From Thermoflexus hugenholtzii JAD2 (GTDB taxonomy: Bacteria; Chloroflexota; Anaerolineae; J036; Brachytrichaceae): 36,367 bases of DNA. Position numbers and translations under genes: made by a program. Every line of letters starts with the position of its first letter. The first letter of the stretch is position 1. The notes below the pieces were generated by a model. That model worked only from the letters and a program-made list of their open reading frames with translations, was not told the DNA's origin and ran no database searches. Of this stretch, positions 225 through 34,950 are shown one piece after another. The stretch covers positions 1-36,367 of the forward strand of contig CAMDWA010000028.1 in NCBI GenBank assembly GCA_945877855.1, written 5' to 3'.

Positions 225-1370
225 CTAAGCTTTGACCTTGGCTTTCAACTGCCCACAACCGGCGGCGATGTCGATGCCACGCCGCACGCGCACACTGTTG
301 GGCACACCGGCGGCATCGAGCACGGCGCAAAATTTGGCGATGCGGTCACGCTGCGAGGCAAGGCCATCGTAACCATTGGTGGGGTTAAGCGGAATCATAT
401 TGACGTGCAACATATGCCGTCGCTCACGACGCGGGTCGTAGGTTTGACGCACCACATTTACCAAAGCATGGGCTTGGTCAATCGTGTCGTTTACACCTTC
501 AATCAAGGCCCATTCAAAACTAACGCGGCGGTTGGTAATGTGAATATAGTCACGGGTGGCCTCGGTTAGCTCGCTCAAAGGGTAGCGGGCGTTGATGGGA
601 ACCAATTTGTTGCGCAATTCATCGGTGCCAGCATGGAGCGACACGGCCAAATTGACCTGCCCGCCCTCTTCAGCAAATTTGCGGATGCCCTGCACCAGCC
701 CAACGGTTGAAACGGTGACTTTGCGTGCGCCTAGCCCAATGCCGCCTTGATCTTCGGCCTCGGTCAAGCGCCGCACCGCCGTCATGACATGGTTATAGTT
801 GGCAAATGGCTCGCCCATGCCCATTAACACCACATTGGTTAATTGAGAATTTAAAATTGAAAATGAAGAATTAGGGGAATGCTCCATTTTTAATTTTTCA
901 TTCTCAATTCTCAATTGCCGATTGGCCCACAGCACTTGCTCAAAAATTTCGCTGGCGGTCAGGTTGCGCAAGAAGCCCATTTGACCAGTGGCGCAAAAGC
1001 TGCAATTCATGGCACAACCGGCCTGCGACGAAATACAGGCGGTGCGACGTGCGCCCTCATATTCCATCAACACGGTTTCGATCTCGCTGCCATCGGGCAA
1101 GCGAAACAACCATTTGCGCGTCCAGCCATCGCTCGATTCTTGTTGTAGCACTGGCGTTAGCCGCCCCAACACATAGGCAGCGCTCAGTTTGCCGCGCAGG
1201 TCTTTGCTCAGGTCGGTCATTTCGTCAATGCTGCCAACATTGCGTTGATATAGCCAGCGCCAAATTTGTTTGGCGCGAAAAGCCGGCTCACCCCACGCCA
1301 TTAATTGGGCCGCCAATTGCTCGCGGCTAAGGTCGTATAGGCTGGGCAGATGAAAGTGTAAGTCGTTCAT
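225..1370 (-). CDS. rlmN: Radical-SAM 23S rRNA (A2503-C2) / tRNA (A37-C2) methyltransferase RlmN
   Basis: 381-aa ORF with the radical-SAM CxxxCxxC motif (CAMNCSFCATG), the GMGEP motif and a C-terminal catalytic Cys (AAGCGQL); similarity runs along the full length. Contains an in-frame AT-rich palindromic insertion (see findings). Confidence 0.9.
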   Translation of the reverse strand: MNDLHFHLPSLYDLSREQLAAQLMAWGEPAFRAKQIWRWLYQRNVGSIDEMTDLSKDLRGKLSAAYVLGRLTPVLQQESSDGWTRKWLFRLPDGSEIETVLMEYEGARRTACISSQAGCAMNCSFCATGQMGFLRNLTASEIFEQVLWANRQLRIENEKLKMEHSPNSSFSILNSQLTNVVLMGMGEPFANYNHVMTAVRRLTEAEDQGGIGLGARKVTVSTVGLVQGIRKFAEEGGQVNLAVSLHAGTDELRNKLVPINARYPLSELTEATRDYIHITNRRVSFEWALIEGVNDTIDQAHALVNVVRQTYDPRRERRHMLHVNMIPLNPTNGYDGLASQRDRIAKFCAVLDAAGVPNSVRVRRGIDIAAGCGQLKAKVKA

Positions 1371-1390
1371 TTATTCCGACTCACCATACT

Positions 1391-1426
1391 CCACACCCCA
1401 CACCCCATACCCCACACCCCAAACCC
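1391..1426 (-). repeat. Heptanucleotide tandem repeat (CCACACC on + strand, GGGGTGT on the rlmN mRNA strand), a predicted G-quadruplex motif in the rlmN 5' leader
   Basis: Four C4 tracts (1396-99, 1403-06, 1410-13, 1417-20) plus one C3 tract, separated by 3-nt loops, with a 7-nt period. It lies 20-56 nt upstream of the rlmN ATG on the coding strand. Confidence 0.7.
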
Positions 1427-1634
1427 TAAAGTATAAATTCTCATAACCTATCTCTTACACAGCAATCATAACACTAGCATCCAAATAAGTAGGGAAGTGA
1501 TGTGACCCCCTAAAAATGGAATCACTGTTTGCGAAATTTCACAGCCTGTTTGTGCTTAAACTAAATAGGGCTAAGGCGACTCAAACAGACATCGAATATC
1601 CATAATTAGAGCAAGTTTCAATATAGACAAAAGT

Positions 1635-4478
1635 TTACCGCACCTCAATCACCCCCGCCCACCAACCTTGACCCCCCACCAACAAACGCTCGCCCGAATA
1701 AGGCAAATAGAAGCCGACACGCAACTGATACTGACCGAGCGGCACATTGTCCAAGCCAAGCATGCGCTCGTCACGCACCCATTCACCCGCCGCCCAGCGC
1801 GAGGTGGGATAAGCCCCATTGAGCGGCTGCCCATCGTTTTGCGCCACCAAGCGCCCCGTTTTGGGGTCGATGAGATGCACAAACACCACATAATCTTGCT
1901 CGATGGGCTGCAACGAGTGCCAATGGAGTGCAAGTTGCAGGTTGCAAGTTGTGGCTTTCATCTCACACGCTGTCATATCAAACCCCGCCAATTCGATCAC
2001 GCCGCCCATAACCGCACCCACCCGCACCTGCGGCGAGGCCACCGCAAAGTTGCGCGGCGGGGCATTCACCGTAATCGCGCCCAAGTCGGCCAACAGCTTG
2101 CCATCGGCCAACACCTGCAATTGATAATCGCCAGCAGCCAAATTGCGCGGTAAGCGTAATTGATAACGGTCGAGCAACGCCAAGTTGGGCGGCCATTCGG
2201 CAAAGGGCAAACGGGCGCGGGCGGGTGCGCCATCAAACAAAGTAACAAGGCTTGGCCCAAGCAACTGCACCTTGAATGTGGCATTTGGCATGGGTTGGGC
2301 TGCCCCTTGCCAACACAGGTCTAGATTCAGCAACGCCCCCGTGTTTAAAGTGCGCTCGCGCAATTGCCACGCGCTTAAGGTTGCACCATTGGGCAAATGG
2401 GTTTGGGTGCTGGTGTAGGGGGCAGCGCTGCAAATGGGCACGGCGGCTGTCACAGGGGGGCGGGGCAATGGGGCGCTCAGTTTGCCAAACGGCAACACCA
2501 GCTCTAGCCCAGCAAATTGCTCATTGGGGCCAACCCGCGGCGGCACATCTTTGGTGTTTGGGTTAAAAAAGCTGATGCCGATTTGATAATCGCCAACCGG
2601 TGGGGTTCCGGTCGGCGGCGGCAATTCGATCTGGTCAAACACAATCTCACCCACCGTCCAATCGGCGGTGGGGTAATGAAATGGGTTGGCACGCACCCAT
2701 TCGCCCGACTCGGCATGAAACAGCCGCGCTACCAACTGCAACGGCTGCCCAATCTGGGCCATCGGCTCCCAGATCACGGTTGCCACACACGGCCCTTGCA
2801 CATGACATTCGCCAAATTTTTGAGCATCGCGCACTTTGACGATGTGGGCAAAATCGGCGGCGGGCGCGGGCAATTGGGCGCGAATGGCCGCGATATCGGC
2901 CTCGCGTAGCCGCATCACACGGGCGGCAACTACGCCATCGGGCGCGGTCAAGAGCGTATCGGTTTGCCAACGGCTGGTGATGAGCGTTGAATAGGGGGCG
3001 GGCGGGTCAACGAAGGTGGGCAAATAATAGAGCGCGTCGCCCTTGGGCGGCAGCACCAGCGTCGCCCCGCCGGTCAGCCATTTCACCTGCCCAAAACGCT
3101 GGGTCAGCGCCGCCACGGTCGGCGATTGATAATGGATGGAGGCGACATACAGCGTGGTGTTTTGCACATCGGCAACACTGCGGCGCTGCAAATCTTGCCC
3201 AATCACAGTCATATTGCCATCGGTGGCAACGAATAAATCGGGCGAGTGATTCCAGCGTGAGTAGCGGTTCCATGCTAGCAAACCAAGCATCGCCGCTGCG
3301 CACATCAACCCAATTTGCAGCCAGCGCCGCGAAATAGTGTGGGGGGGTAACAAACTGTGCAACCCATTAAACAGCGTCACACCGCCATAACCAATCACCG
3401 GTGCGAGAAAGGTCCAAACACCGATCATGCGAATATTGCTAGGGATGATGTCTTTGACCGCCAAGGCGCTGGGCACAAGCATGATTACTAGCCCGGACAA
3501 CAATAACGCCCGCGTGGCATAAACCTCCGAGGTCTTAAAGACCTCGGAGGTTTTTTGTGGGATGAGTAGCGTGATTACCCCAATTAACCCAAACAATGAG
3601 AAAACTTCGCCACTCAGCGGCAGGCCCGGCAGGTTATAGCGCACATTAGGGTCGCCGAAGTTGGGCAAAAACAAGCCGAGCCAACATTGCCACCATGCCC
3701 ACGCCACCTCGCGCCAGCCCGCACTACCACTCACTTGGTCGAGCCGCGCCGAAAAAATATCGGGGTTTTGAATAAAAAACCAGCCCAATGGCGCAAACAC
3801 TATTGCCGCCACAAGCCCCATCAACCCCACCCGTGCCAAACGCTGACCACACCCACGCCGGGCAGACACAGCCAACCACACCAATAACGCCAAGGCGACC
3901 GGAATAGGAAACAAACGCGCCGCCAAATAAGTATAGGCGACCAAACCGAGAAAAACACCCGCCGCCGCAAACCAACGCCAGCGTCCCGTATTCATGCCGC
4001 GCCATAGCGCCATAAGCACCAACGCCTGCACCACCGGTTGTGAGCCAGCGCGATAGCCATAACGCGCAAAAATGAGCGGCGCAATGCTGACAGCCAGCCA
4101 AAACGCGGCGATCAGGGCGATGGCATTGCGCTGAGGGTGCGCGGCAAACAACGAGCGCGTCATTGAAAAAGTGGCGGCGATGCCGATGAGGCTGAGCATG
4201 GCCGAAGCAAGGCGCGTACCCCAAGTGGCGTTATCGGCCATCATCAACCAAGGCGCGGCCCAATATAAAAAGCCCACCTCACGCCCGACAAAGGCCCGCA
4301 CAAAAATAGGCCGGTCTCCGTTATAGGCAATATCGCGGATGTTTAACACGTAGGCGGCTTCGTCGTAATGCAGCCCATGGGCAAGGGTAGTGATATCGGT
4401 CAGGCGCAATAACGCCGCCACCAGTAAAATCAAGGTGGCAAGCCATAAGGTGGTGCGGGCATCAGGTCGGCGCAACAT
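1635..4478 (-). CDS. GT-C superfamily membrane glycosyltransferase (ArnT/PMT_2-like, GT39/GT83-like) with a large C-terminal extracytoplasmic domain
   Basis: 947 aa with about 12-13 predicted TM helices in the N-terminal 450 aa, an HYDEAAY (DE) motif in the first loop, and a long non-membrane C-terminal domain. Contains a 33-bp in-frame palindrome at 3521-3553. Confidence 0.6.
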   Translation of the reverse strand: MLRRPDARTTLWLATLILLVAALLRLTDITTLAHGLHYDEAAYVLNIRDIAYNGDRPIFVRAFVGREVGFLYWAAPWLMMADNATWGTRLASAMLSLIGIAATFSMTRSLFAAHPQRNAIALIAAFWLAVSIAPLIFARYGYRAGSQPVVQALVLMALWRGMNTGRWRWFAAAGVFLGLVAYTYLAARLFPIPVALALLVWLAVSARRGCGQRLARVGLMGLVAAIVFAPLGWFFIQNPDIFSARLDQVSGSAGWREVAWAWWQCWLGLFLPNFGDPNVRYNLPGLPLSGEVFSLFGLIGVITLLIPQKTSEVFKTSEVYATRALLLSGLVIMLVPSALAVKDIIPSNIRMIGVWTFLAPVIGYGGVTLFNGLHSLLPPHTISRRWLQIGLMCAAAMLGLLAWNRYSRWNHSPDLFVATDGNMTVIGQDLQRRSVADVQNTTLYVASIHYQSPTVAALTQRFGQVKWLTGGATLVLPPKGDALYYLPTFVDPPAPYSTLITSRWQTDTLLTAPDGVVAARVMRLREADIAAIRAQLPAPAADFAHIVKVRDAQKFGECHVQGPCVATVIWEPMAQIGQPLQLVARLFHAESGEWVRANPFHYPTADWTVGEIVFDQIELPPPTGTPPVGDYQIGISFFNPNTKDVPPRVGPNEQFAGLELVLPFGKLSAPLPRPPVTAAVPICSAAPYTSTQTHLPNGATLSAWQLRERTLNTGALLNLDLCWQGAAQPMPNATFKVQLLGPSLVTLFDGAPARARLPFAEWPPNLALLDRYQLRLPRNLAAGDYQLQVLADGKLLADLGAITVNAPPRNFAVASPQVRVGAVMGGVIELAGFDMTACEMKATTCNLQLALHWHSLQPIEQDYVVFVHLIDPKTGRLVAQNDGQPLNGAYPTSRWAAGEWVRDERMLGLDNVPLGQYQLRVGFYLPYSGERLLVGGQGWWAGVIEVR

Positions 4479-4502: not shown

Positions 4503-4625
4503 GGGAGCCGTGAGCCATGAGCTTTGAGCTTTGAGCCTTGAGCCTTGAGCTATGAGTCACAAGTCACGGCTCATGGCTCATGGCTCATAGCTCATGGCTC
4601 CAAAGCTCATGCCTCACGGCTCAAA
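4503..4625. repeat. Quasi-palindromic heptamer array (TGAGCNN x7, then its complement NNGCTCA x8) in the divergent promoter region
   Basis: Left arm tgagcca/tgagctt/tgagctt/tgagcct/tgagcct/tgagcta; the right arm is the complementary set cggctca/tggctca/tggctca/tagctca and so on. It sits between the GT gene start (4478, minus) and the CMD start (4642, plus). Confidence 0.75.
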
Positions 4626-4641
4626 GCTATACAATACAGAC

Positions 4642-5031: not shown

Positions 5032-6416
5032 TGATGACCAACTTGACCTTTACCCCCCTCAGCAAACTGCGCCGCATGTTACGAGATAAAAAAATCTCGT
5101 CGGTTGAGTTGACCCAGCATTTTTTAGACCGTTTGGCCCAACACGGCCCCAAATATAACGCGCTGGCCGAGCTGACACCCGATTTGGCATTGGCGCAAGC
5201 CAAACAGGCCGATCAATTGCTCAAAAAAGGCGAACACAACTCACCCTTGCTCGGCATTCCCTATGGGGCCAAAGATTTGCTGGCAACCAAAGGCATCCCC
5301 ACCCGTTGGGGATCACCCGCCCACCAAGACCAAGTGCCAGAGGTCGATGCCACAACGGTGCTGCGCCTGCGCGAGGCAGGTGCACCATTATTGGGCAAAT
5401 TGGCAATGGTCGAAATTGCGGGCGGCGGCGGGTATTCATTACCCAGCGCCTCGTTGCATGGGCCGGGGCTTAATCCTTGGAATGTTAATACGTGGTCAGG
5501 TGGCTCATCATCGGGGTCGGGCAGCGCGGTGGCGGCGGGGTTGGTGCCGTTTGCGCTTGGCTCTGAAACATGGGGCAGCATCGTCACACCGTCAACCTAT
5601 TGCGGCATTACTGGCTTGCGCCCAACCTATGGCTTGGTCAGCCGCTTTGGGGCAATGGAATTGGCGTGGACGATGGACAAAGTGGGGCCGATGGCGCACA
5701 GCGCCGAAGATTGTGGCCTCATTCTGCAAGCCATTGCTGGCCCTGATAGGCTCGACCTGACCGCAACCGGCAAATTTAAATTTCGCCCACGCAAAAAACA
5801 ACATCATAAGTTGCGGTTAGGCGTGTTGCCTGCCGATTTTAGTGGCGAGCCTGAGCTTGAGCAGGTTTTTCAGGCCGCGCTTGAGGTGTTGCATAAGGCC
5901 GGTATGAAGATCAAACCAGTGGAGTTGCCCAAGCACGACTATGCTGGCATCGCCAATACGCTGCTGTATGCCGAAATGGCGGGGGCGCATGAGGCGTTTA
6001 TCAAAAGCGACAAACTTGATTTGCTGGTGAATGGCCCGCAAAAAGAGGGCTTGCGCAACGCCTTAACCTACACTGCCGCCCAAACCATTCAAGCCCAACA
6101 ACAAAAATTACAGGCCACCCACGACCTGTTGCAGCTTTTTGACGAATTTGATGCGCTGGTGTCGCCGTCACTCATGATTGAGGCCCCATCGCTTGACACC
6201 GACTTGCGCACGGCGTTTAAACGGCGCGGGGGCTATAGCGTGTTGGGGGCCTTGTGTGGCGTGCCGGCCTTGGCTTTGCCGATGGGCTTTGGCAAATCGG
6301 GTTTGCCGCTTGGCCTTAATATTACCGGCAATTTGTTTGACGAAAACACCATTTTGCACATCGGCATGGTTTATCAGCGCGAAACCGATTGGCATGAACG
6401 GCGACCACCAATTTAA
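5031..6416 (+). CDS. Amidase-signature family amidase (GatA-like)
   Basis: Amidase signature GGSSSGSGSAVAAG...GSETWGSI with the catalytic Lys in YGAKDLL. 461 aa, translationally coupled to the upstream CMD gene. Confidence 0.8.
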   Translation: MMTNLTFTPLSKLRRMLRDKKISSVELTQHFLDRLAQHGPKYNALAELTPDLALAQAKQADQLLKKGEHNSPLLGIPYGAKDLLATKGIPTRWGSPAHQDQVPEVDATTVLRLREAGAPLLGKLAMVEIAGGGGYSLPSASLHGPGLNPWNVNTWSGGSSSGSGSAVAAGLVPFALGSETWGSIVTPSTYCGITGLRPTYGLVSRFGAMELAWTMDKVGPMAHSAEDCGLILQAIAGPDRLDLTATGKFKFRPRKKQHHKLRLGVLPADFSGEPELEQVFQAALEVLHKAGMKIKPVELPKHDYAGIANTLLYAEMAGAHEAFIKSDKLDLLVNGPQKEGLRNALTYTAAQTIQAQQQKLQATHDLLQLFDEFDALVSPSLMIEAPSLDTDLRTAFKRRGGYSVLGALCGVPALALPMGFGKSGLPLGLNITGNLFDENTILHIGMVYQRETDWHERRPPI

Positions 6417-13869: not shown

Positions 13870-14840
13870 TCACCCCCCTGATGGGTAGCACGGCACTGGC
13901 TTGTTGGATAGTGCACAACAACCTCACAAGACCAGTCCGCGTTGACGCAAATGCAGCACTCACCCTGCTATCAATTGAGGCGGTGGGCGCGTTTGTCTGG
14001 CTTGCTTGCGCGGCTCGTGCGGGGGCAGATGCCCAGCAACTGACAGTTGCTGGGCATCTACTCACCCTTAATTGATGGCAAACGTAACACTCACCACGCC
14101 ATCAATTGAGGCAGTGATGGGGTTAGTCTGGCGTGCTTGCGCGGCTCATGCGGGTGCAGATGCACCGCACCTCGCAGGTGCGGCGCATCTACTCACCCCA
14201 CGTTGGTGGCAAATGCAACGCTCACCCCGCCCTCAATTGAGGCAGTGATGGGGTTAGTCTGGCTTGCTTGCGCGGCTCGTCCGGATGCAGATGCACCGCA
14301 CCTCGCAGGTGCGGCGCATCTACTCACCCTTAAATTGATGGCAATGCAACGCTTACCCCGCCCTCAATTGAGGCAGTGGGCGCGGTCATTTGGCTTGCTT
14401 GCGCGGCTCGTGCGGGGGCAGATGCCCAGCAACTGACAGTTGCTGGGCATCTACTCACCCTTAATTGATGGCAAACGTAACACTAACCCCGCCATCAATT
14501 GAGGCAGTGACGGGGTTAGTCTAGCTTGCTTGCGCGGCTCATGCGGGTGCAGATGCGCCGCACCTGCGAGGTGCGGCGCATCTACTCACCCTTAAATTGG
14601 TGGCAAATGTAACACTCACCCTGCCCTCAATTGAGGCGGTGACGGGGTTAGTCTGGCGTGCTTGCGCGGCTCGTGCAGGTGCAGATGCCCAGCAACTGGC
14701 AGTTGCTGGGCATCTACTCACCCTTAAATTGATGGCAAATGCAACGCTCACCCCACCCTCAATTAAGGCGGTGGGCGCGGTCGTTTGGCTGGCTTGCGCG
14801 GATCGTGCGGGTGCAGATGCGCCGCACCTGCGAAGGGCGA
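13870..14840. repeat. Tandem array of about 7.4 units of ~131 bp (130-133 bp), each with two conserved hairpins and two alternating variants
   Basis: Unit starts (motif caattgagg) at 13971, 14104, 14234, 14365, 14496, 14628 and 14760. Variant A hairpin is gatgcccagcaactg-aca-cagttgctgggcatc; variant B hairpin is gatgcgccgcacct-gcg-aggtgcggcgcatc. A second hairpin, aattgatggc...gcc(a/c)tcaatt, spans the unit junctions. Confidence 0.85.
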
Positions 14841-24963: not shown

Positions 24964-24965
24964 GA

Positions 24966-25068
24966 GTGGCAGGAGGCAAGTGGCAGGTAGCAAGTGGCAA
25001 GTAAAAAGTATCTAACTACTTTGCACTTTGCACTTTGCACTTGCCACTTGCCACCTGCCACCTGCCCC
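24966..25068. repeat. Quasi-palindromic heptamer array (GTGGCAR x~7 / YTGCCAC x~7) followed by a T-tract; probable terminator or attenuator between the anti-sigma and ABC genes
   Basis: gtggcag gaggcaa gtggcag gtagcaa gtggcaa ... tttgcac x3 ttgccac x2 ctgccac ctgcccc, then tttttt and the ABC ATG at 25075. Confidence 0.75.
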
Positions 25069-25074
25069 TTTTTT

Positions 25075-25998
25075 ATGTTCGTTATCGAAACCCAACACCT
25101 GCAAAAACAATTTGGCAATAAGCTAGCCGTTGCCGATCTTACGCTCACGGTCAACTCAGGCGAGGTGTTTGGGTTTCTGGGGCCAAATGGGGCAGGTAAA
25201 AGCACCTCAATTAAAATGTTGTTGGGGTTAGTCAAACCCAGTGCGGGCAACTGTTGGGTATTGGGGTTGCCGCCCGGCAATGTGCAAGCTCGCCGCAAAA
25301 TTGGCTTTTTGCCCGAGCATTTTCGTTTTCACGATTGGCTGACCGGACGCGAGTTTCTGCATTTTCACGGGCGGTTATATGGCATGTCGGGCCAAGCACT
25401 CAAACAACGGATCGAGACATTGCTGGCGCGGGTCGCCTTGTTAGAAGCGGGCGACCGCAAATTGCAACAATATAGCAAAGGCATGTTGCAGCGCATCGGG
25501 TTGGCAATGGCCTTGCTCAATCACCCCCAAATTGTCTTTTTAGACGAGCCAACCTCAGGGCTTGACCCATTAGGCCGCCTGCTGGTGCGCGATATCATCA
25601 CGGAAATACGCAACGAAGGCACTACTGTCTTTCTAAATTCGCACTTGCTCAGCGAAATCGAAGTGACGTGTAACCGCGTGGTTTTTCTCAAGCGCGGCAA
25701 TGTGGTGCGCGAAATCAACTTAAAAGACAATGAAATTCATATCAACGAACTCGAACTAAAATTGGGGCCGGTCGATGACAGCATTTTGCAAGGGTTAGCC
25801 CAATTTGGCAGCAATGCCCATCGAGATGGCGACCTCATTCGCATGAATATTCAAGACGAAGCCAGCCTGCCACAACTGGCCCGTTGGCTGGTCGGCCAAG
25901 GTTGCGAAATTTATCGCCTCGCTGCCCATCACCCATCGCTTGAACAACTGTTTGTTGAAACCATGACCGAAGAAAATAAGTTAACCATTGATGGTTAA
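25075..25998 (+). CDS. ABC transporter ATP-binding protein (ABC-2 / exporter type)
   Basis: Walker A GPNGAGKST, signature YSKGMLQRIGLA, and Walker B IVFLDEPTSGLD. Confidence 0.85.
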   Translation: MFVIETQHLQKQFGNKLAVADLTLTVNSGEVFGFLGPNGAGKSTSIKMLLGLVKPSAGNCWVLGLPPGNVQARRKIGFLPEHFRFHDWLTGREFLHFHGRLYGMSGQALKQRIETLLARVALLEAGDRKLQQYSKGMLQRIGLAMALLNHPQIVFLDEPTSGLDPLGRLLVRDIITEIRNEGTTVFLNSHLLSEIEVTCNRVVFLKRGNVVREINLKDNEIHINELELKLGPVDDSILQGLAQFGSNAHRDGDLIRMNIQDEASLPQLARWLVGQGCEIYRLAAHHPSLEQLFVETMTEENKLTIDG

Positions 25999-26078
25999 TG
26001 ATTAATGGTCAATGATTAATGGTTAATGATTAATGGTTAATGATTAATGATTAATGATTAATGATTAATGATTAATGG
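25995..26078. repeat. Heptanucleotide microsatellite TTAATGR x12 spanning the ABC ATPase stop codon and the permease start codon
   Basis: Units counted directly as ttaatga, ttaatgg, tcaatga, ttaatgg, ttaatga, ttaatgg, ttaatga x5, ttaatgg. The ATPase TAA (25996-98) is in unit 1 and the candidate permease ATG (26068) is in unit 11. Confidence 0.85.
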
Positions 26079-26946
26079 TAGTTTTGCTGCGTTAAAAATG
26101 ATGTTTACGATCGCCCATCTCACCTTTCATGAAGCCCTGCGCAAGCGGGTATTACTGGCGGCCATTGTGCTGGGGGCACTTTTTCTCATCGTCTTTGGCG
26201 TTGGCATTTATTTTATTAACGATGCGGTCATCCAACAAGAGTTACGATCAGCGCCGTCGGCCATTCGTGCCCAAAGCAACCGCCTCGCCTATAATTTTTT
26301 GGCGATGGCCGGGCTATACACGGTGAATTTTTTGCTGGTCATGATGGCAACCCTGTTACCCGTTGACACCCTTTCGGGCGAAATAAGCTCTGGCTCAATT
26401 CAGTCATTGGTGGTTAAACCGGTGCGGCGCTCGCAAATTGTGCTAGGCAAATGGCTGGGCTTTGCGTTCATTATGCTGATTTATGCCAGCTGCATGATTG
26501 GCGGCATCGTTGGCCTGGTGGCAATCATGACCAGCTATGACTTGCCCAATATTCACATCGCCCTGCCGATTATGTTACTCGAAACCTTGCTATTGCTCAC
26601 CTTGTCGATTGCAGGCGGCACGCGATTTACCACCTTAACCAATGGCGTTTTTGTGTTTGGTATGTTTGGCTTGGCCTTTATCGGCGGCTGGGTCGAGCAA
26701 GTCGGCGGTTTACTTGGCAATCAGGCCGCGCAAAATATCGGGGTCATCACCAGCCTCATCATGCCTAGCGAAGCGCTGTGGCGGCTAGCCGCGCATTATA
26801 TGCAACCCGATGGCATAAGCGCACTCAACATCACCCCATTTTCAAGCACCATTGTGCCCAGCCCCAATATGTTATTGTGGGCCATTGGCTACACCCTTAT
26901 TACGTTACTGCTCGCCATCCGCCACTTCTCGCAAAGAGATTTATAA
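26068..26946 (+). CDS. ABC-2 family transporter permease
   Basis: 292 aa with about 6 TM helices, located downstream of the ABC ATPase. The start is ambiguous (26068 inside the heptamer repeat, or ATG 26098). Confidence 0.65.
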   Translation: MINGSFAALKMMFTIAHLTFHEALRKRVLLAAIVLGALFLIVFGVGIYFINDAVIQQELRSAPSAIRAQSNRLAYNFLAMAGLYTVNFLLVMMATLLPVDTLSGEISSGSIQSLVVKPVRRSQIVLGKWLGFAFIMLIYASCMIGGIVGLVAIMTSYDLPNIHIALPIMLLETLLLLTLSIAGGTRFTTLTNGVFVFGMFGLAFIGGWVEQVGGLLGNQAAQNIGVITSLIMPSEALWRLAAHYMQPDGISALNITPFSSTIVPSPNMLLWAIGYTLITLLLAIRHFSQRDL

Positions 26947-26972: not shown

Positions 26973-27075
26973 GAGCATCCCCAAAAGACGTAACGCCGAA
27001 CGCACTGTCACTTTGTGTTTGAAGAGGGCAAAGCCTTCTTCAAACACAAAGTGACAGTGCGTTCGGCGAAAATAG
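26973..27075. repeat. ~100-bp palindromic MITE-like element (family 2, copy 1, inverted orientation)
   Basis: cgccgaacgcactgtcactttgtgtttgaagagggcaaagccttcttcaaacacaaagtgacagtgcgttcggcg plus the tail ggggatgc...cgtcttttgg. Near-identical to the copies at 32410 and 34717. Confidence 0.8.
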
Positions 27076-32352: not shown

Positions 32353-32409
32353 TTTTAGCGTTTAGATTTACAATTAAAATAATTCAAAAATAGCGAAGAT
32401 TAAAACAAA

Positions 32410-32510
32410 TTTTCGCCGAACTCACTATCATTTTGTGTTTGGAGAGGGCTTTGCCCTCTCCAAACACAAAATGATAGTGAGTTCGGCATTACGTCTTTTG
32501 GGGACGCCCC
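32410..32510. repeat. ~100-bp palindromic MITE-like element (family 2, copy 2)
   Basis: ttttcgccgaactcactatcattttgtgtttggagagggctttgccctctccaaacacaaaatgatagtgagttcggcattacgtcttttggggacgcccc. Confidence 0.8.
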
Positions 32511-33412: not shown

Positions 33413-34707
33413 ACTGCGACCTCATCATCCACTCCGCCGCCCAACTCGTTACCTGCGCCAGCGCCAATAACGGCCCCAAACGCGGCCATGACATGCGCGA
33501 CGTTGGCGACATCGCCAATGGCAATCATTTGCCCGCCGCCATCGCCATTAGCGATGGGCAAATTATTGCCATTGGCCCAAGTGACGATATTTGTGCCGAC
33601 TATCAGGCAAAGCACAGCATCGATGCCAGCGGCAAAACCATTTGCCCGGGGTTGATCGACCCCCATACTCACCTCATTTACGCTGGCGACCGCGTGGCCG
33701 AATGGGAGATGAAACTGCGTGGTGTCGCCTACTTAGAAATTTTGGCCGCGGGCGGCGGCATCGTCAGCACCATGCGGGCCACACGGGCTGCCGGGATAGC
33801 CGCGCTGGTGGCGCAAGCAAAGCCGCGCCTCGACACGCTGATGCGTAATGGTGTCACCACTTGCGAGATCAAAACCGGTTATGGCCTCAGCCTCGAGGCC
33901 GAATTAGCCATGTTACAAGCCATTGAACAACTGGCACAAACCCACCCATGCGATGTGCTTTTAACATTACTCGCCGCCCATACCACCCCACCCGAATTTA
34001 AAACCGACCCAAATGGCTATGTCGATTTGGTGGTTGAGCAAATCATTCCCCAAGCCGCCGCATGGTTTAATCAAAACGCCCGTGCCAACCACGCTACACC
34101 CATGGCATGTGATGTATTTTGCGAAAATCACGCCTTTGATGTGGCGCAAGCACGGCGAATATTAATGGCAGGCAAACAACATGGCCTCACACCTAAAATC
34201 CACGTCGATCAATTTACCTCATTGGGCGGGGTCGAGATGGCGCTTGAGGTCGGCGCGTTATCGTGCGATCATTTAGATGTGACCACAGCCGACGATCGGG
34301 CGCGGCTAGCGCAATCATCGGCTGTAGCAGTGGTGTTACCCGCGGTCACATTTCATCTTGGCAGCCACCAATTTGCCAACGCCCGTGCTTTTATTGATGA
34401 TGGCTGTGCACTCGCGCTCAGCACCGACCATAACCCCGGCTCGGCCCCGTGTTTGTCGCCTGCGCTCACCATGTCGATCGCATGTCGTTACCAGAAACTC
34501 AACCCTGCCGAAGCGCTCAACGCTTGCACCATCAACGCCGCCCATGCACTTGGCATCGGCAACAAAGTTGGCTCGCTCGAAATCGGCAAACAAGCCGATA
34601 TCATTATCATCAACGCGCCCGACTATCGCCACTTAGCCTATCAATTTGGGGGCAATTTGGTGCAATATGTTATTAAAAATGGGGCAGTAGCAATGGTTAA
34701 TGGTTAA
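33409..34707 (+). CDS. hutI: Imidazolonepropionase
   Basis: Amidohydrolase fold with GLIDPHTHL, KIHVDQF and the metal-ligand pattern typical of HutI. Start taken at MNCDL, overlapping the upstream stop; the track ORF starts at 33385. Confidence 0.85.
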   Translation: MNCDLIIHSAAQLVTCASANNGPKRGHDMRDVGDIANGNHLPAAIAISDGQIIAIGPSDDICADYQAKHSIDASGKTICPGLIDPHTHLIYAGDRVAEWEMKLRGVAYLEILAAGGGIVSTMRATRAAGIAALVAQAKPRLDTLMRNGVTTCEIKTGYGLSLEAELAMLQAIEQLAQTHPCDVLLTLLAAHTTPPEFKTDPNGYVDLVVEQIIPQAAAWFNQNARANHATPMACDVFCENHAFDVAQARRILMAGKQHGLTPKIHVDQFTSLGGVEMALEVGALSCDHLDVTTADDRARLAQSSAVAVVLPAVTFHLGSHQFANARAFIDDGCALALSTDHNPGSAPCLSPALTMSIACRYQKLNPAEALNACTINAAHALGIGNKVGSLEIGKQADIIIINAPDYRHLAYQFGGNLVQYVIKNGAVAMVNG

Positions 34708-34716
34708 TGAATTTAT

Positions 34717-34816
34717 TTTCGCCGAACTCACTATCACTTCGTGTTTGGAGAAGGCAAAGCCTTCTCCAAACACAAAGTGATAGTGAGTTCGGCATTACGT
34801 CTTTTATGGTCACCCC
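34717..34816. repeat. ~100-bp palindromic MITE-like element (family 2, copy 3)
   Basis: ttttcgccgaactcactatcacttcgtgtttggagaaggcaaagccttctccaaacacaaagtgatagtgagttcggcattacgtcttttatggtcacccc. Confidence 0.8.
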
Positions 34817-34876: not shown

Positions 34877-34950
34877 CGCCCTCAGAGAGACTCGAACTCC
34901 CGACCTAGGCATTAGAAGGGCCGCGCTCTATCCACCTGAGCTATGAGGGC
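34877..34950 (-). tRNA. tRNA-Arg (anticodon TCT), no encoded CCA
   Basis: Minus-strand sequence GCCCTCATAGCTCAGGTGGATAGAGCGCGGCCCTTCTAATGCCTAGGTCGGGAGTTCGAGTCTCTCTGAGGGCG. Clover-leaf with a 7-bp acceptor stem, GCTC/GAGC D-stem, T-arm GGGAG-TTCGAGT-CTCTC and anticodon loop CTTCTAA. The anticodon stem has only 3 Watson-Crick pairs (C:U at 27:43 and 31:39). Confidence 0.7.

Follow-up and report, generated by a model that had tools for sequence, protein, structure and literature searches.

The window, by which the whole analyzed stretch of 36,367 nt is meant, carries the methyltransferase gene rlmN on its minus strand, with a longer ORF upstream of it (Table 1). The leader of rlmN contains a tandem array of five 7-nt units and a degenerate leading unit, GGGTTT, which TRF detects at 1391-1426 (period 7, 5.1 copies, score 58; also as a 21-nt period, score 72). 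When the minus strand is read from 1426 to 1368, the array is followed by GGTGAGT CGGAATAA and then by the ATG of rlmN (1370-1368). The first-pass annotation had described a G-rich heptamer repeat in this leader that ends about 20 nt before the start codon, and re-reading of the minus strand bears out its sequence and coordinates, the distance to the ATG being 20 nt. By direct sequence reading, the heptamer phase continues from the array into the start region (TGGAGTA-TGGTGAG-TCGGAAT). No inverted partner was found for the array, unlike for several other heptamer loci of the window, and it is therefore not a hairpin or MITE-like element, an identity that was considered and rejected. The ORF upstream of rlmN also contains a perfect palindrome, which encodes the duplicated peptide KTSEVFKTSEV.

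Table 1. Positions of the rlmN leader features and of other repeats in the window
Feature	Position	Strand	Description
rlmN CDS	225..1370	minus	381 aa; TIGR00048 match, 351.6 bits (cut-off 290)
ORF upstream of rlmN	1635..4478	minus (same strand as rlmN)	947 aa; without NCBIfam match
Heptanucleotide tandem array	1386..1426	minus (rlmN coding strand)	GGGTTT(GGGGTGT)(GGGGTAT)(GGGGTGT)(GGGGTGT)(GGAGTAT)
Canonical G-quadruplex core	1396..1420	minus	GGGGTGTGGGGTATGGGGTGTGGGG; four G4 tracts, 3-nt loops
Promoter-like non-coding block	1426..1486	minus	61 nt, ATTTGGATGC...GAGAATTTATACTTTAG; invariant except at 3 positions
-10-like TATACT	1430-1435		within the 61-nt block; ends 4 nt before the array
Start region	1367..1387	minus	ATGGTGAGTCGGAATAAATGA; invariant; possible 6-codon uORF, TGA overlapping the rlmN ATG (ATGA)
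GGTGAG	1380-1385		ends 11 nt before the ATG
GGA of GGAA	1375-1377		GGAA at -9 to -6
Promoter-scan site	1648-1620		9/12; overlaps the stop codon of the upstream ORF
Heptamer locus	841-916		inverted pair with AATTGAG arms; in-frame palindromic insert of ~75 nt in rlmN, encodes ...RIENEKLKMEHSPNSSFSILNSQL...
Heptamer locus	1391-1426		rlmN leader
Heptamer locus	1929-1951		
Heptamer locus	4505-4623 (inverted pair 4505-4628)		large inverted pair, GAGCCNT and complement; upstream of an AhpD/CMD-family gene
Heptamer locus	24965-25070		inverted pair AGTGGCA / CACTTGC; directly upstream of an ABC-transporter ATPase gene
Heptamer locus	25987-26079		ATTAATG x13; fills the ABC-transporter ATPase-permease gap, overlaps the ATPase stop and reaches the next start
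Heptamer locus	34692-34709		
Palindrome	3521-3553		perfect, 33 nt, AAACCTCCGAGGTCTT/AAGACCTCGGAGGTTT; inside the 947-aa ORF
131-nt tandem repeat	13947-14830		6.7 copies, 83% matches, about 60% GC; intergenic
Dispersed long-hairpin element	32409-32500, 34715-34806, 26994-27068 (inverted)		~90 nt, TTTTCGCCGAACTCACTATCACTTTGTGTTTGGAGAAGGC...; three copies
tRNA gene	34877-34950		adjoined by one copy of the hairpin element

Both flanks of the array are conserved. The 61-nt block on its upstream side reads ATTTGGATGC...GAGAATTT(A/T)TACTTTAG among the contigs and is kept in every related contig that reaches it (L018 and L102, which begin inside the array, are excluded from this comparison), including L107-109, which have a different upstream gene, and its conservation exceeds that of the coding sequence of rlmN. 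A called 101-aa ORF of L107-109 terminates within the block. This block is probably the promoter or operator of rlmN, and its conservation suggests that TATACT may be the -10 element. A consensus promoter scan did not report the block, the site at 1648-1620 being the sole one returned, and a terminator scan gave weak terminator-like hairpins only. Given its place between a conserved promoter-like block upstream and an invariant start region downstream, the array is probably transcribed, and read-through from the 947-aa ORF would also place it in the mRNA if there were no separate promoter.

On the downstream side, the start region is invariant across the contigs (TATGGTGAGT.GG..TAAATG), and the length of the possible uORF and its ATGA overlap with rlmN are kept in all 26 contigs that have both flanks and in all leader types. 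A second frame of this region closes with a TAA directly before the rlmN ATG. With the 16S tail taken as canonical (no 16S lies in the window), GGTGAG, which had been put forward as the likely SD, turns out to be a poor candidate at -3.0 kcal/mol, while GGAA is better placed and pairs with the anti-SD at -3.5 kcal/mol, and the strongest pairing, -6.0 kcal/mol, is that of the GGGGU units of the array itself. These units could then be a ribosome standby or decoy site, or the SD of the six-codon uORF, with any quadruplex irrelevant or competing, and every array allele does have its last full GGGG tract 7 nt ahead of the ATG of the uORF, which no contig has lost. However, a uORF of only 21 nt may be conserved merely because the start region is, the leaders that have no array lack an SD at a suitable distance from it, the 16S tail is assumed rather than observed, and the variation in copy number described below would be left unexplained. 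Hence we regard an SD-like function of the repeat as highly improbable.

Predicted folding of the leader

On one strand, the core at 1396-1420 has at least four runs of at least three G with loops of 1-7 nt between them, as is expected of a canonical intramolecular G-quadruplex (G4). It is the single occurrence of the GGGG-N1-7 x4 motif in the 36-kb window when both strands are scanned, and the motif was found in 0 of 200 dinucleotide-preserving shuffles of the window, which confirms the four-tract G4 motif that the first-pass annotation had seen on the rlmN sense strand; the looser G3+ x4 motif occurs four times in the window versus 0.8 expected. The recommended check by G4 prediction likewise came out in favor of the motif, in that ViennaRNA with G-quadruplex energies predicts a four-tetrad G4 for the core RNA at -30.6 kcal/mol. 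For the 100-nt leader, the MFE is -51.9 kcal/mol with the G4 and -29.5 kcal/mol without it (ViennaRNA), so that the quadruplex is predicted to dominate the leader fold. The number of motifs and of predicted G4s depends on the allele, with one in an array of five units, two in an array of eight and none in arrays of two or three units. Rfam gave no leader match, either at gathering thresholds in the whole window or at E<=1 in the segment 1300-1700, and the leader is therefore not a riboswitch or a member of a known leader family, which had been a candidate identity. When folded as single sequences, the leaders of the window, L080 and L001 each show a hairpin that encloses the start codon, with stems in different registers, and covariation for this hairpin is not claimed for that reason.

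G-quadruplexes in bacterial 5'UTRs are expected to fold co-transcriptionally and to alter translation or transcription (PMC11087576; PMC4692102). The effect depends on position, being inhibitory adjoining the SD and enhancing by up to 5-12-fold 43 nt upstream (PMC11087576), and G4s on the non-template strand can raise transcription (PMC11087576; PMC4692102). Like the 5'UTR RNA G4s studied by Lee et al. (2024, PMC11087576), the one in the rlmN leader would be a sense-strand G4 between a putative promoter and the RBS, but it is predicted to end ~16 nt from the likely SD, a position that is neither SD-adjacent nor 43 nt upstream as in that work. With the last G tract at this distance, the sign of any effect is therefore not predictable, and the direction is all the more ambiguous because the published effects go both ways (PMC11087576; PMC4692102).

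These properties bring up the explanation that the first-pass annotation had favored, namely a dedicated regulatory element, in which selection keeps an RNA or non-template-DNA G4 because it controls the translation or transcription of rlmN. In favor of this, the sense strand carries a canonical motif that is unique in the window, its predicted fold is very stable, and it lies between the promoter-like block and the start region, where bacterial 5'UTR G4s act measurably (PMC11087576; PMC4692102). The last G tract, however, is ~16 nt upstream of the best-placed SD, so that the SD would not be masked, and the comparison of strains weighs against such an element as well.

Array length among related strains

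The closest genome records are uncultured Chloroflexota MAGs labelled Thermoflexus, Anaerolineae or Thermoflexales. Alleles were gathered by exact-protein look-ups, that is, from contigs encoding the RlmN of the window or members of its 90% cluster, while the conserved flank TAGGTTATGAGAATTTWTACTTTAG, searched as an exact string in JGI metagenome contigs, had 0 matches there. In the alignment, a variable zone lies between the invariant flanks, and the allele counts refer to the 26 related contigs in which both flanks are present. Eight contigs have no unit, nine have two units, one has three, five (the window included) have five and three have eight, such that two units is the commonest array allele and none has exactly four. 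In the 18 array contigs, the variable zone consists of GGTTT and then heptamer units, and in the eight others it consists of 26-41 nt of non-repetitive, G/T-rich sequence (such as TGCTTGAAATGTGGGTGGATGCGGGTTTAATGGCGGGTT), the 3' part of which is period-7-like and resembles a precursor of the array. The canonical G4 motif is present in 8/26 contigs and missing in 18/26 (eight without an array and ten with two or three units). The comparison of copy number between strains, which had been proposed as a check, has thus uncovered a large polymorphism.

The polymorphism extends to strains that are otherwise nearly indistinguishable. Contig k141_110077 (L080 and L083) aligns to the window with 0 mismatches across 4,384 nt and 19,201 nt, the sole difference in the 23.6 kb compared being a 14-nt (two-unit) gap in the array. 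Contigs that encode the identical RlmN protein P0003 have two, five or eight units, with 0-4 substitutions over the aligned 2.7-4.1 kb, and in these comparisons, which span a few kb per strain, strains that are 99.9% identical have array lengths 21 or 42 nt apart. The arrays in coding sequence (CAACTTG in the 947-aa ORF and AATTGAG in rlmN) are constant in copy number in the same strains. Since the P0003 alleles of two, five and eight units all differ in 21-nt steps, a constraint, for instance by reading frame or helical phase, could be suspected; this is not supported, as the window strain shows a 14-nt step and the alleles are few.

Variation of this kind in G-rich DNA could in principle come from assembly or sequencing, and contigs L018 and L102 do break at or degrade in the array, as expected for such DNA on Illumina. 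However, no allele has an internal exact repeat of more than 20 nt, so that de Bruijn paths are unambiguous and assemblies with k>=31 resolve the array, and the same alleles recur across independent samples, projects and assemblers. For these two reasons the copy-number polymorphism is real, assembly collapse is rejected, and an artefact is scarcely credible as an explanation of the array.

Leader type is also discordant with the rlmN gene tree. In rlmN, 8 of 1,146 nt distinguish the window (five units) from L104 (no array), and L101 (two units) and L103 (no array) encode an identical RlmN protein, which points to recombination or to repeated gain and loss. Across orthologous leaders, the array shows neither the conserved presence nor the conserved structure that would be expected of a cis-regulatory RNA. 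A G4 retained by selection is thus very unlikely, given that the canonical motif is missing in 18 of 26 contigs, that two units is the commonest array length, that sister strains whose rlmN CDS differs by just 8 nt lack the array altogether, that strains with an identical RlmN carry two, five or eight units, and that there is no preference for four units, unlike in the repeats of Xanthomonas and Nostoc. Because most strains lack the G4 and yet keep an identical or near-identical RlmN, the G4 is not needed for rlmN.

The same data could be read as evidence for an adaptive tuning knob, similar to a contingency locus, in which mutability itself is selected and zero, one or two G4s, or simply the length of the leader, vary the level of RlmN. 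The array mutates at a rate far above the background of point substitutions while its flanks are invariant, its copy number is hypervariable among near-identical strains as in contingency loci, three discrete allele classes are found within one protein-identical group, and 5'UTR G4s both enhance and repress in E. coli (PMC11087576). Against this, rlmN is a housekeeping rRNA/tRNA methyltransferase gene rather than a surface or restriction-modification gene, and the array, which lies between TATACT and the start region, neither sits in a reading frame nor alters the -35/-10 spacing of promoter hexamers. Moreover, the heptamer arrays of the lineage adjoin genes of many kinds, and Rehm et al. assigned no regulatory role to analogous repeats (PMC4692102). 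Selected mutability is therefore unlikely in our view. Nevertheless, an adaptive tuning locus would also be expected to combine hypermutability with invariant flanks, and neutrality is thus no given.

Heptamer repeats within and beyond the lineage

The rlmN leader is one of about seven heptamer loci that TRF finds in the window, rather than one of four as had been stated by the first-pass annotation. At a TRF score of >=40, the window and its closest relatives together contain 13 period-7 arrays within 57 kb. Other Thermoflexales-like loci contain 8 within 226 kb, and unrelated loci a single one within 591 kb, so that the density in this Chloroflexota lineage is ~130 times that of the unrelated loci. 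Among periods from 4 to 15, period 7 is the only one enriched in the close group at this score. The units are specific to each locus and include AATTGAG, TGCAAGT, GAGCCTT, AGTGGCA, ATTAATG, AATGGTT and GGGAATA, among others, and within the window and the other loci fetched (part of the genome) GGGGTRT repeats are confined to the rlmN leader. In view of this diversity between loci, the G-richness of the rlmN-leader unit looks like one draw and not the driver. G-rich heptamer units with other sequences do recur in the lineage, and in the close relative L018 a 16-unit G4-capable array of GGGAATA/GGGGAAT (5243-5463) is followed by a C-rich inverted partner.

Several of these loci have features of their own. 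The heptamer insert within rlmN is common to all close relatives, with its center as the most variable part of the protein, and in more distant Thermoflexales-like genomes the same place in rlmN is taken by other heptamer arrays (L008 6489-6515, L022 6433-6462). Contig L085 (1-1108), in which an identical amidase is encoded, shares sequence with the window only from the first base of the array there (4505) onward, and has PaaA/PaaB genes instead of the 947-aa ORF upstream of the match; the discontinuity at this heptamer repeat reflects a break in synteny or else a chimeric join. The ATTAATG array and the AGTGGCA / CACTTGC pair are both identical in k141_110077. Repeats of other kinds are also present in the window. 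The 131-nt tandem repeat sits between a 248-aa ORF and a 956-aa NACHT/FGE-sulfatase-domain ORF, with no long ORF across it and no Rfam match, and the ~90-nt hairpin element, which has compensatory stem changes, is REP- or MITE-like.

Heptameric repeats that form G4s have been described in Xanthomonas (GGGAATC) and in Nostoc PCC 7120 (GGGGA(C/T)T), with no function proven (Rehm et al. 2015, PMC4692102). The rlmN-leader array is of the same type, having a tandem 7-nt unit made up of a G3-4 tract and a 3-nt loop, an intergenic location near an ORF, a length that varies greatly between close relatives, adjoining housekeeping genes and a general excess of heptamer SSRs in the genome. It is set apart from these and other known heptamer repeats by its unit, GGGGT(G/A)T, which occurs at a single locus in the DNA examined where those of Rehm et al. 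occur at tens of loci per genome, by the lack of a preference for four units, the minimum for a G4 (two, three, five and eight are seen here), and by the orientation of its G-rich strand, which is sense and upstream of the ORF whereas the upstream repeats of Rehm et al. are mostly antisense; in addition, the host belongs to the Chloroflexota (PMC4692102).

The excess of period 7 over other periods and relative to other genomes resembles that of the cyanobacterial STRR sequences. As with the Nostoc heptamers (bioRxiv 10.1101/2022.06.06.494920), many arrays with differing units are scattered, often just upstream of starts, with some forming inverted pairs and some intragenic, but the phylum is another one and no unit sequence is held in common. 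Regulatory proposals for Nostoc rest on promoter-deletion reporters for other units (bioRxiv 10.1101/2022.06.06.494920). Direct repeats of TAACTGA are found upstream of start codons in Beggiatoaceae, cyanobacteria and Bacteroidetes, in 2-6 or more copies within a few nt of the starts, and a translational role has been proposed for them, not shown (MacGregor 2015, PMC4679880). The likeness to the rlmN array is in the tandem heptamers in 5' leaders near start codons whose canonical RBSs are weak. However, the TAACTGA family has one dominant unit at ~170 loci, which is not G-rich and lacks G4 potential (PMC4679880), while in the present lineage the unit differs per locus and the end of the rlmN array is 20 nt before the ATG.

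Chloroflexi were already known to carry heptamer-based repeats, from the heptamer-derived satellites (GATAGRA)n of Chloroflexus aurantiacus (Subirana and Messeguer 2019, PMC6749651). These are scattered tandem repeats as well, but of a single unit family that does not form G4s, in the class Chloroflexia, and no strain-level polymorphism was analyzed (PMC6749651). Our literature search found no paper on heptamer repeats in Thermoflexales or Anaerolineae.

Origin and possible consequences of the array

Taken together, it is likely that the array is a hypermutable heptanucleotide SSR in the rlmN leader, driven by slippage or recombination, with its G4 motif as a side effect and not as a conserved regulator. 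It would be one locus of the lineage-wide excess of 7-nt repeats in these uncultured, Thermoflexales-like Chloroflexota and probably arose from a G/T-rich proto-repeat of the ancestral leader (...GGGTTTAATGGCGGGTTATGGTGAGT), after which replication slippage or unequal recombination would lengthen or shorten it by 14 or 21 nt at a time. An allele with four or more GGGG tracts would thereby gain a canonical G4 motif on the non-template (mRNA-sense) strand, and the predicted stable RNA quadruplex would be switched on or off by the length of the array. If TATACT is the promoter, the array would form the first ~40 nt of the rlmN mRNA.

We infer transcription of the array, in vivo folding of the G4 and any effect on expression alike, and in strains with the G4 it may, at most, shift the expression of rlmN. 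The first-pass annotation would have given up its proposal for a repeat that is not transcribed and shows neither a polymorphism in copy number nor an effect on expression, and since the array is probably in the mRNA and its copy number is highly polymorphic, that is not the outcome. A bolder version of the same scheme is a copy-number rheostat, in which slippage toggles between zero, one and two very stable RNA G4s at the extreme 5' end of the rlmN mRNA, directly behind a conserved promoter, and so tunes RlmN across co-existing strains; we consider it distinctly unlikely.

At present, the main practical value of the array is as a strain marker. It also provides a caution, in that repeat expansion can incidentally and transiently produce a textbook G4 motif beside a start codon. 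With this locus, an uncultured lineage of the Chloroflexota joins the few groups with an excess of heptamers, namely cyanobacteria, Xanthomonas, Beggiatoaceae and Chloroflexus. If expanded alleles were to fold and alter RlmN output, the strains would be a clean natural allelic series (0, 2, 3, 5 and 8 units) in near-identical backgrounds, which could be used to test the action of 5'UTR G4s in bacteria, where published effects run in both directions. Were the rheostat true, the level of RlmN, the m2A methyltransferase of ribosome and tRNA, would be tuned among co-existing uncultured Chloroflexota strains, and heptamer arrays in general would provide this lineage with heritable variation in expression.
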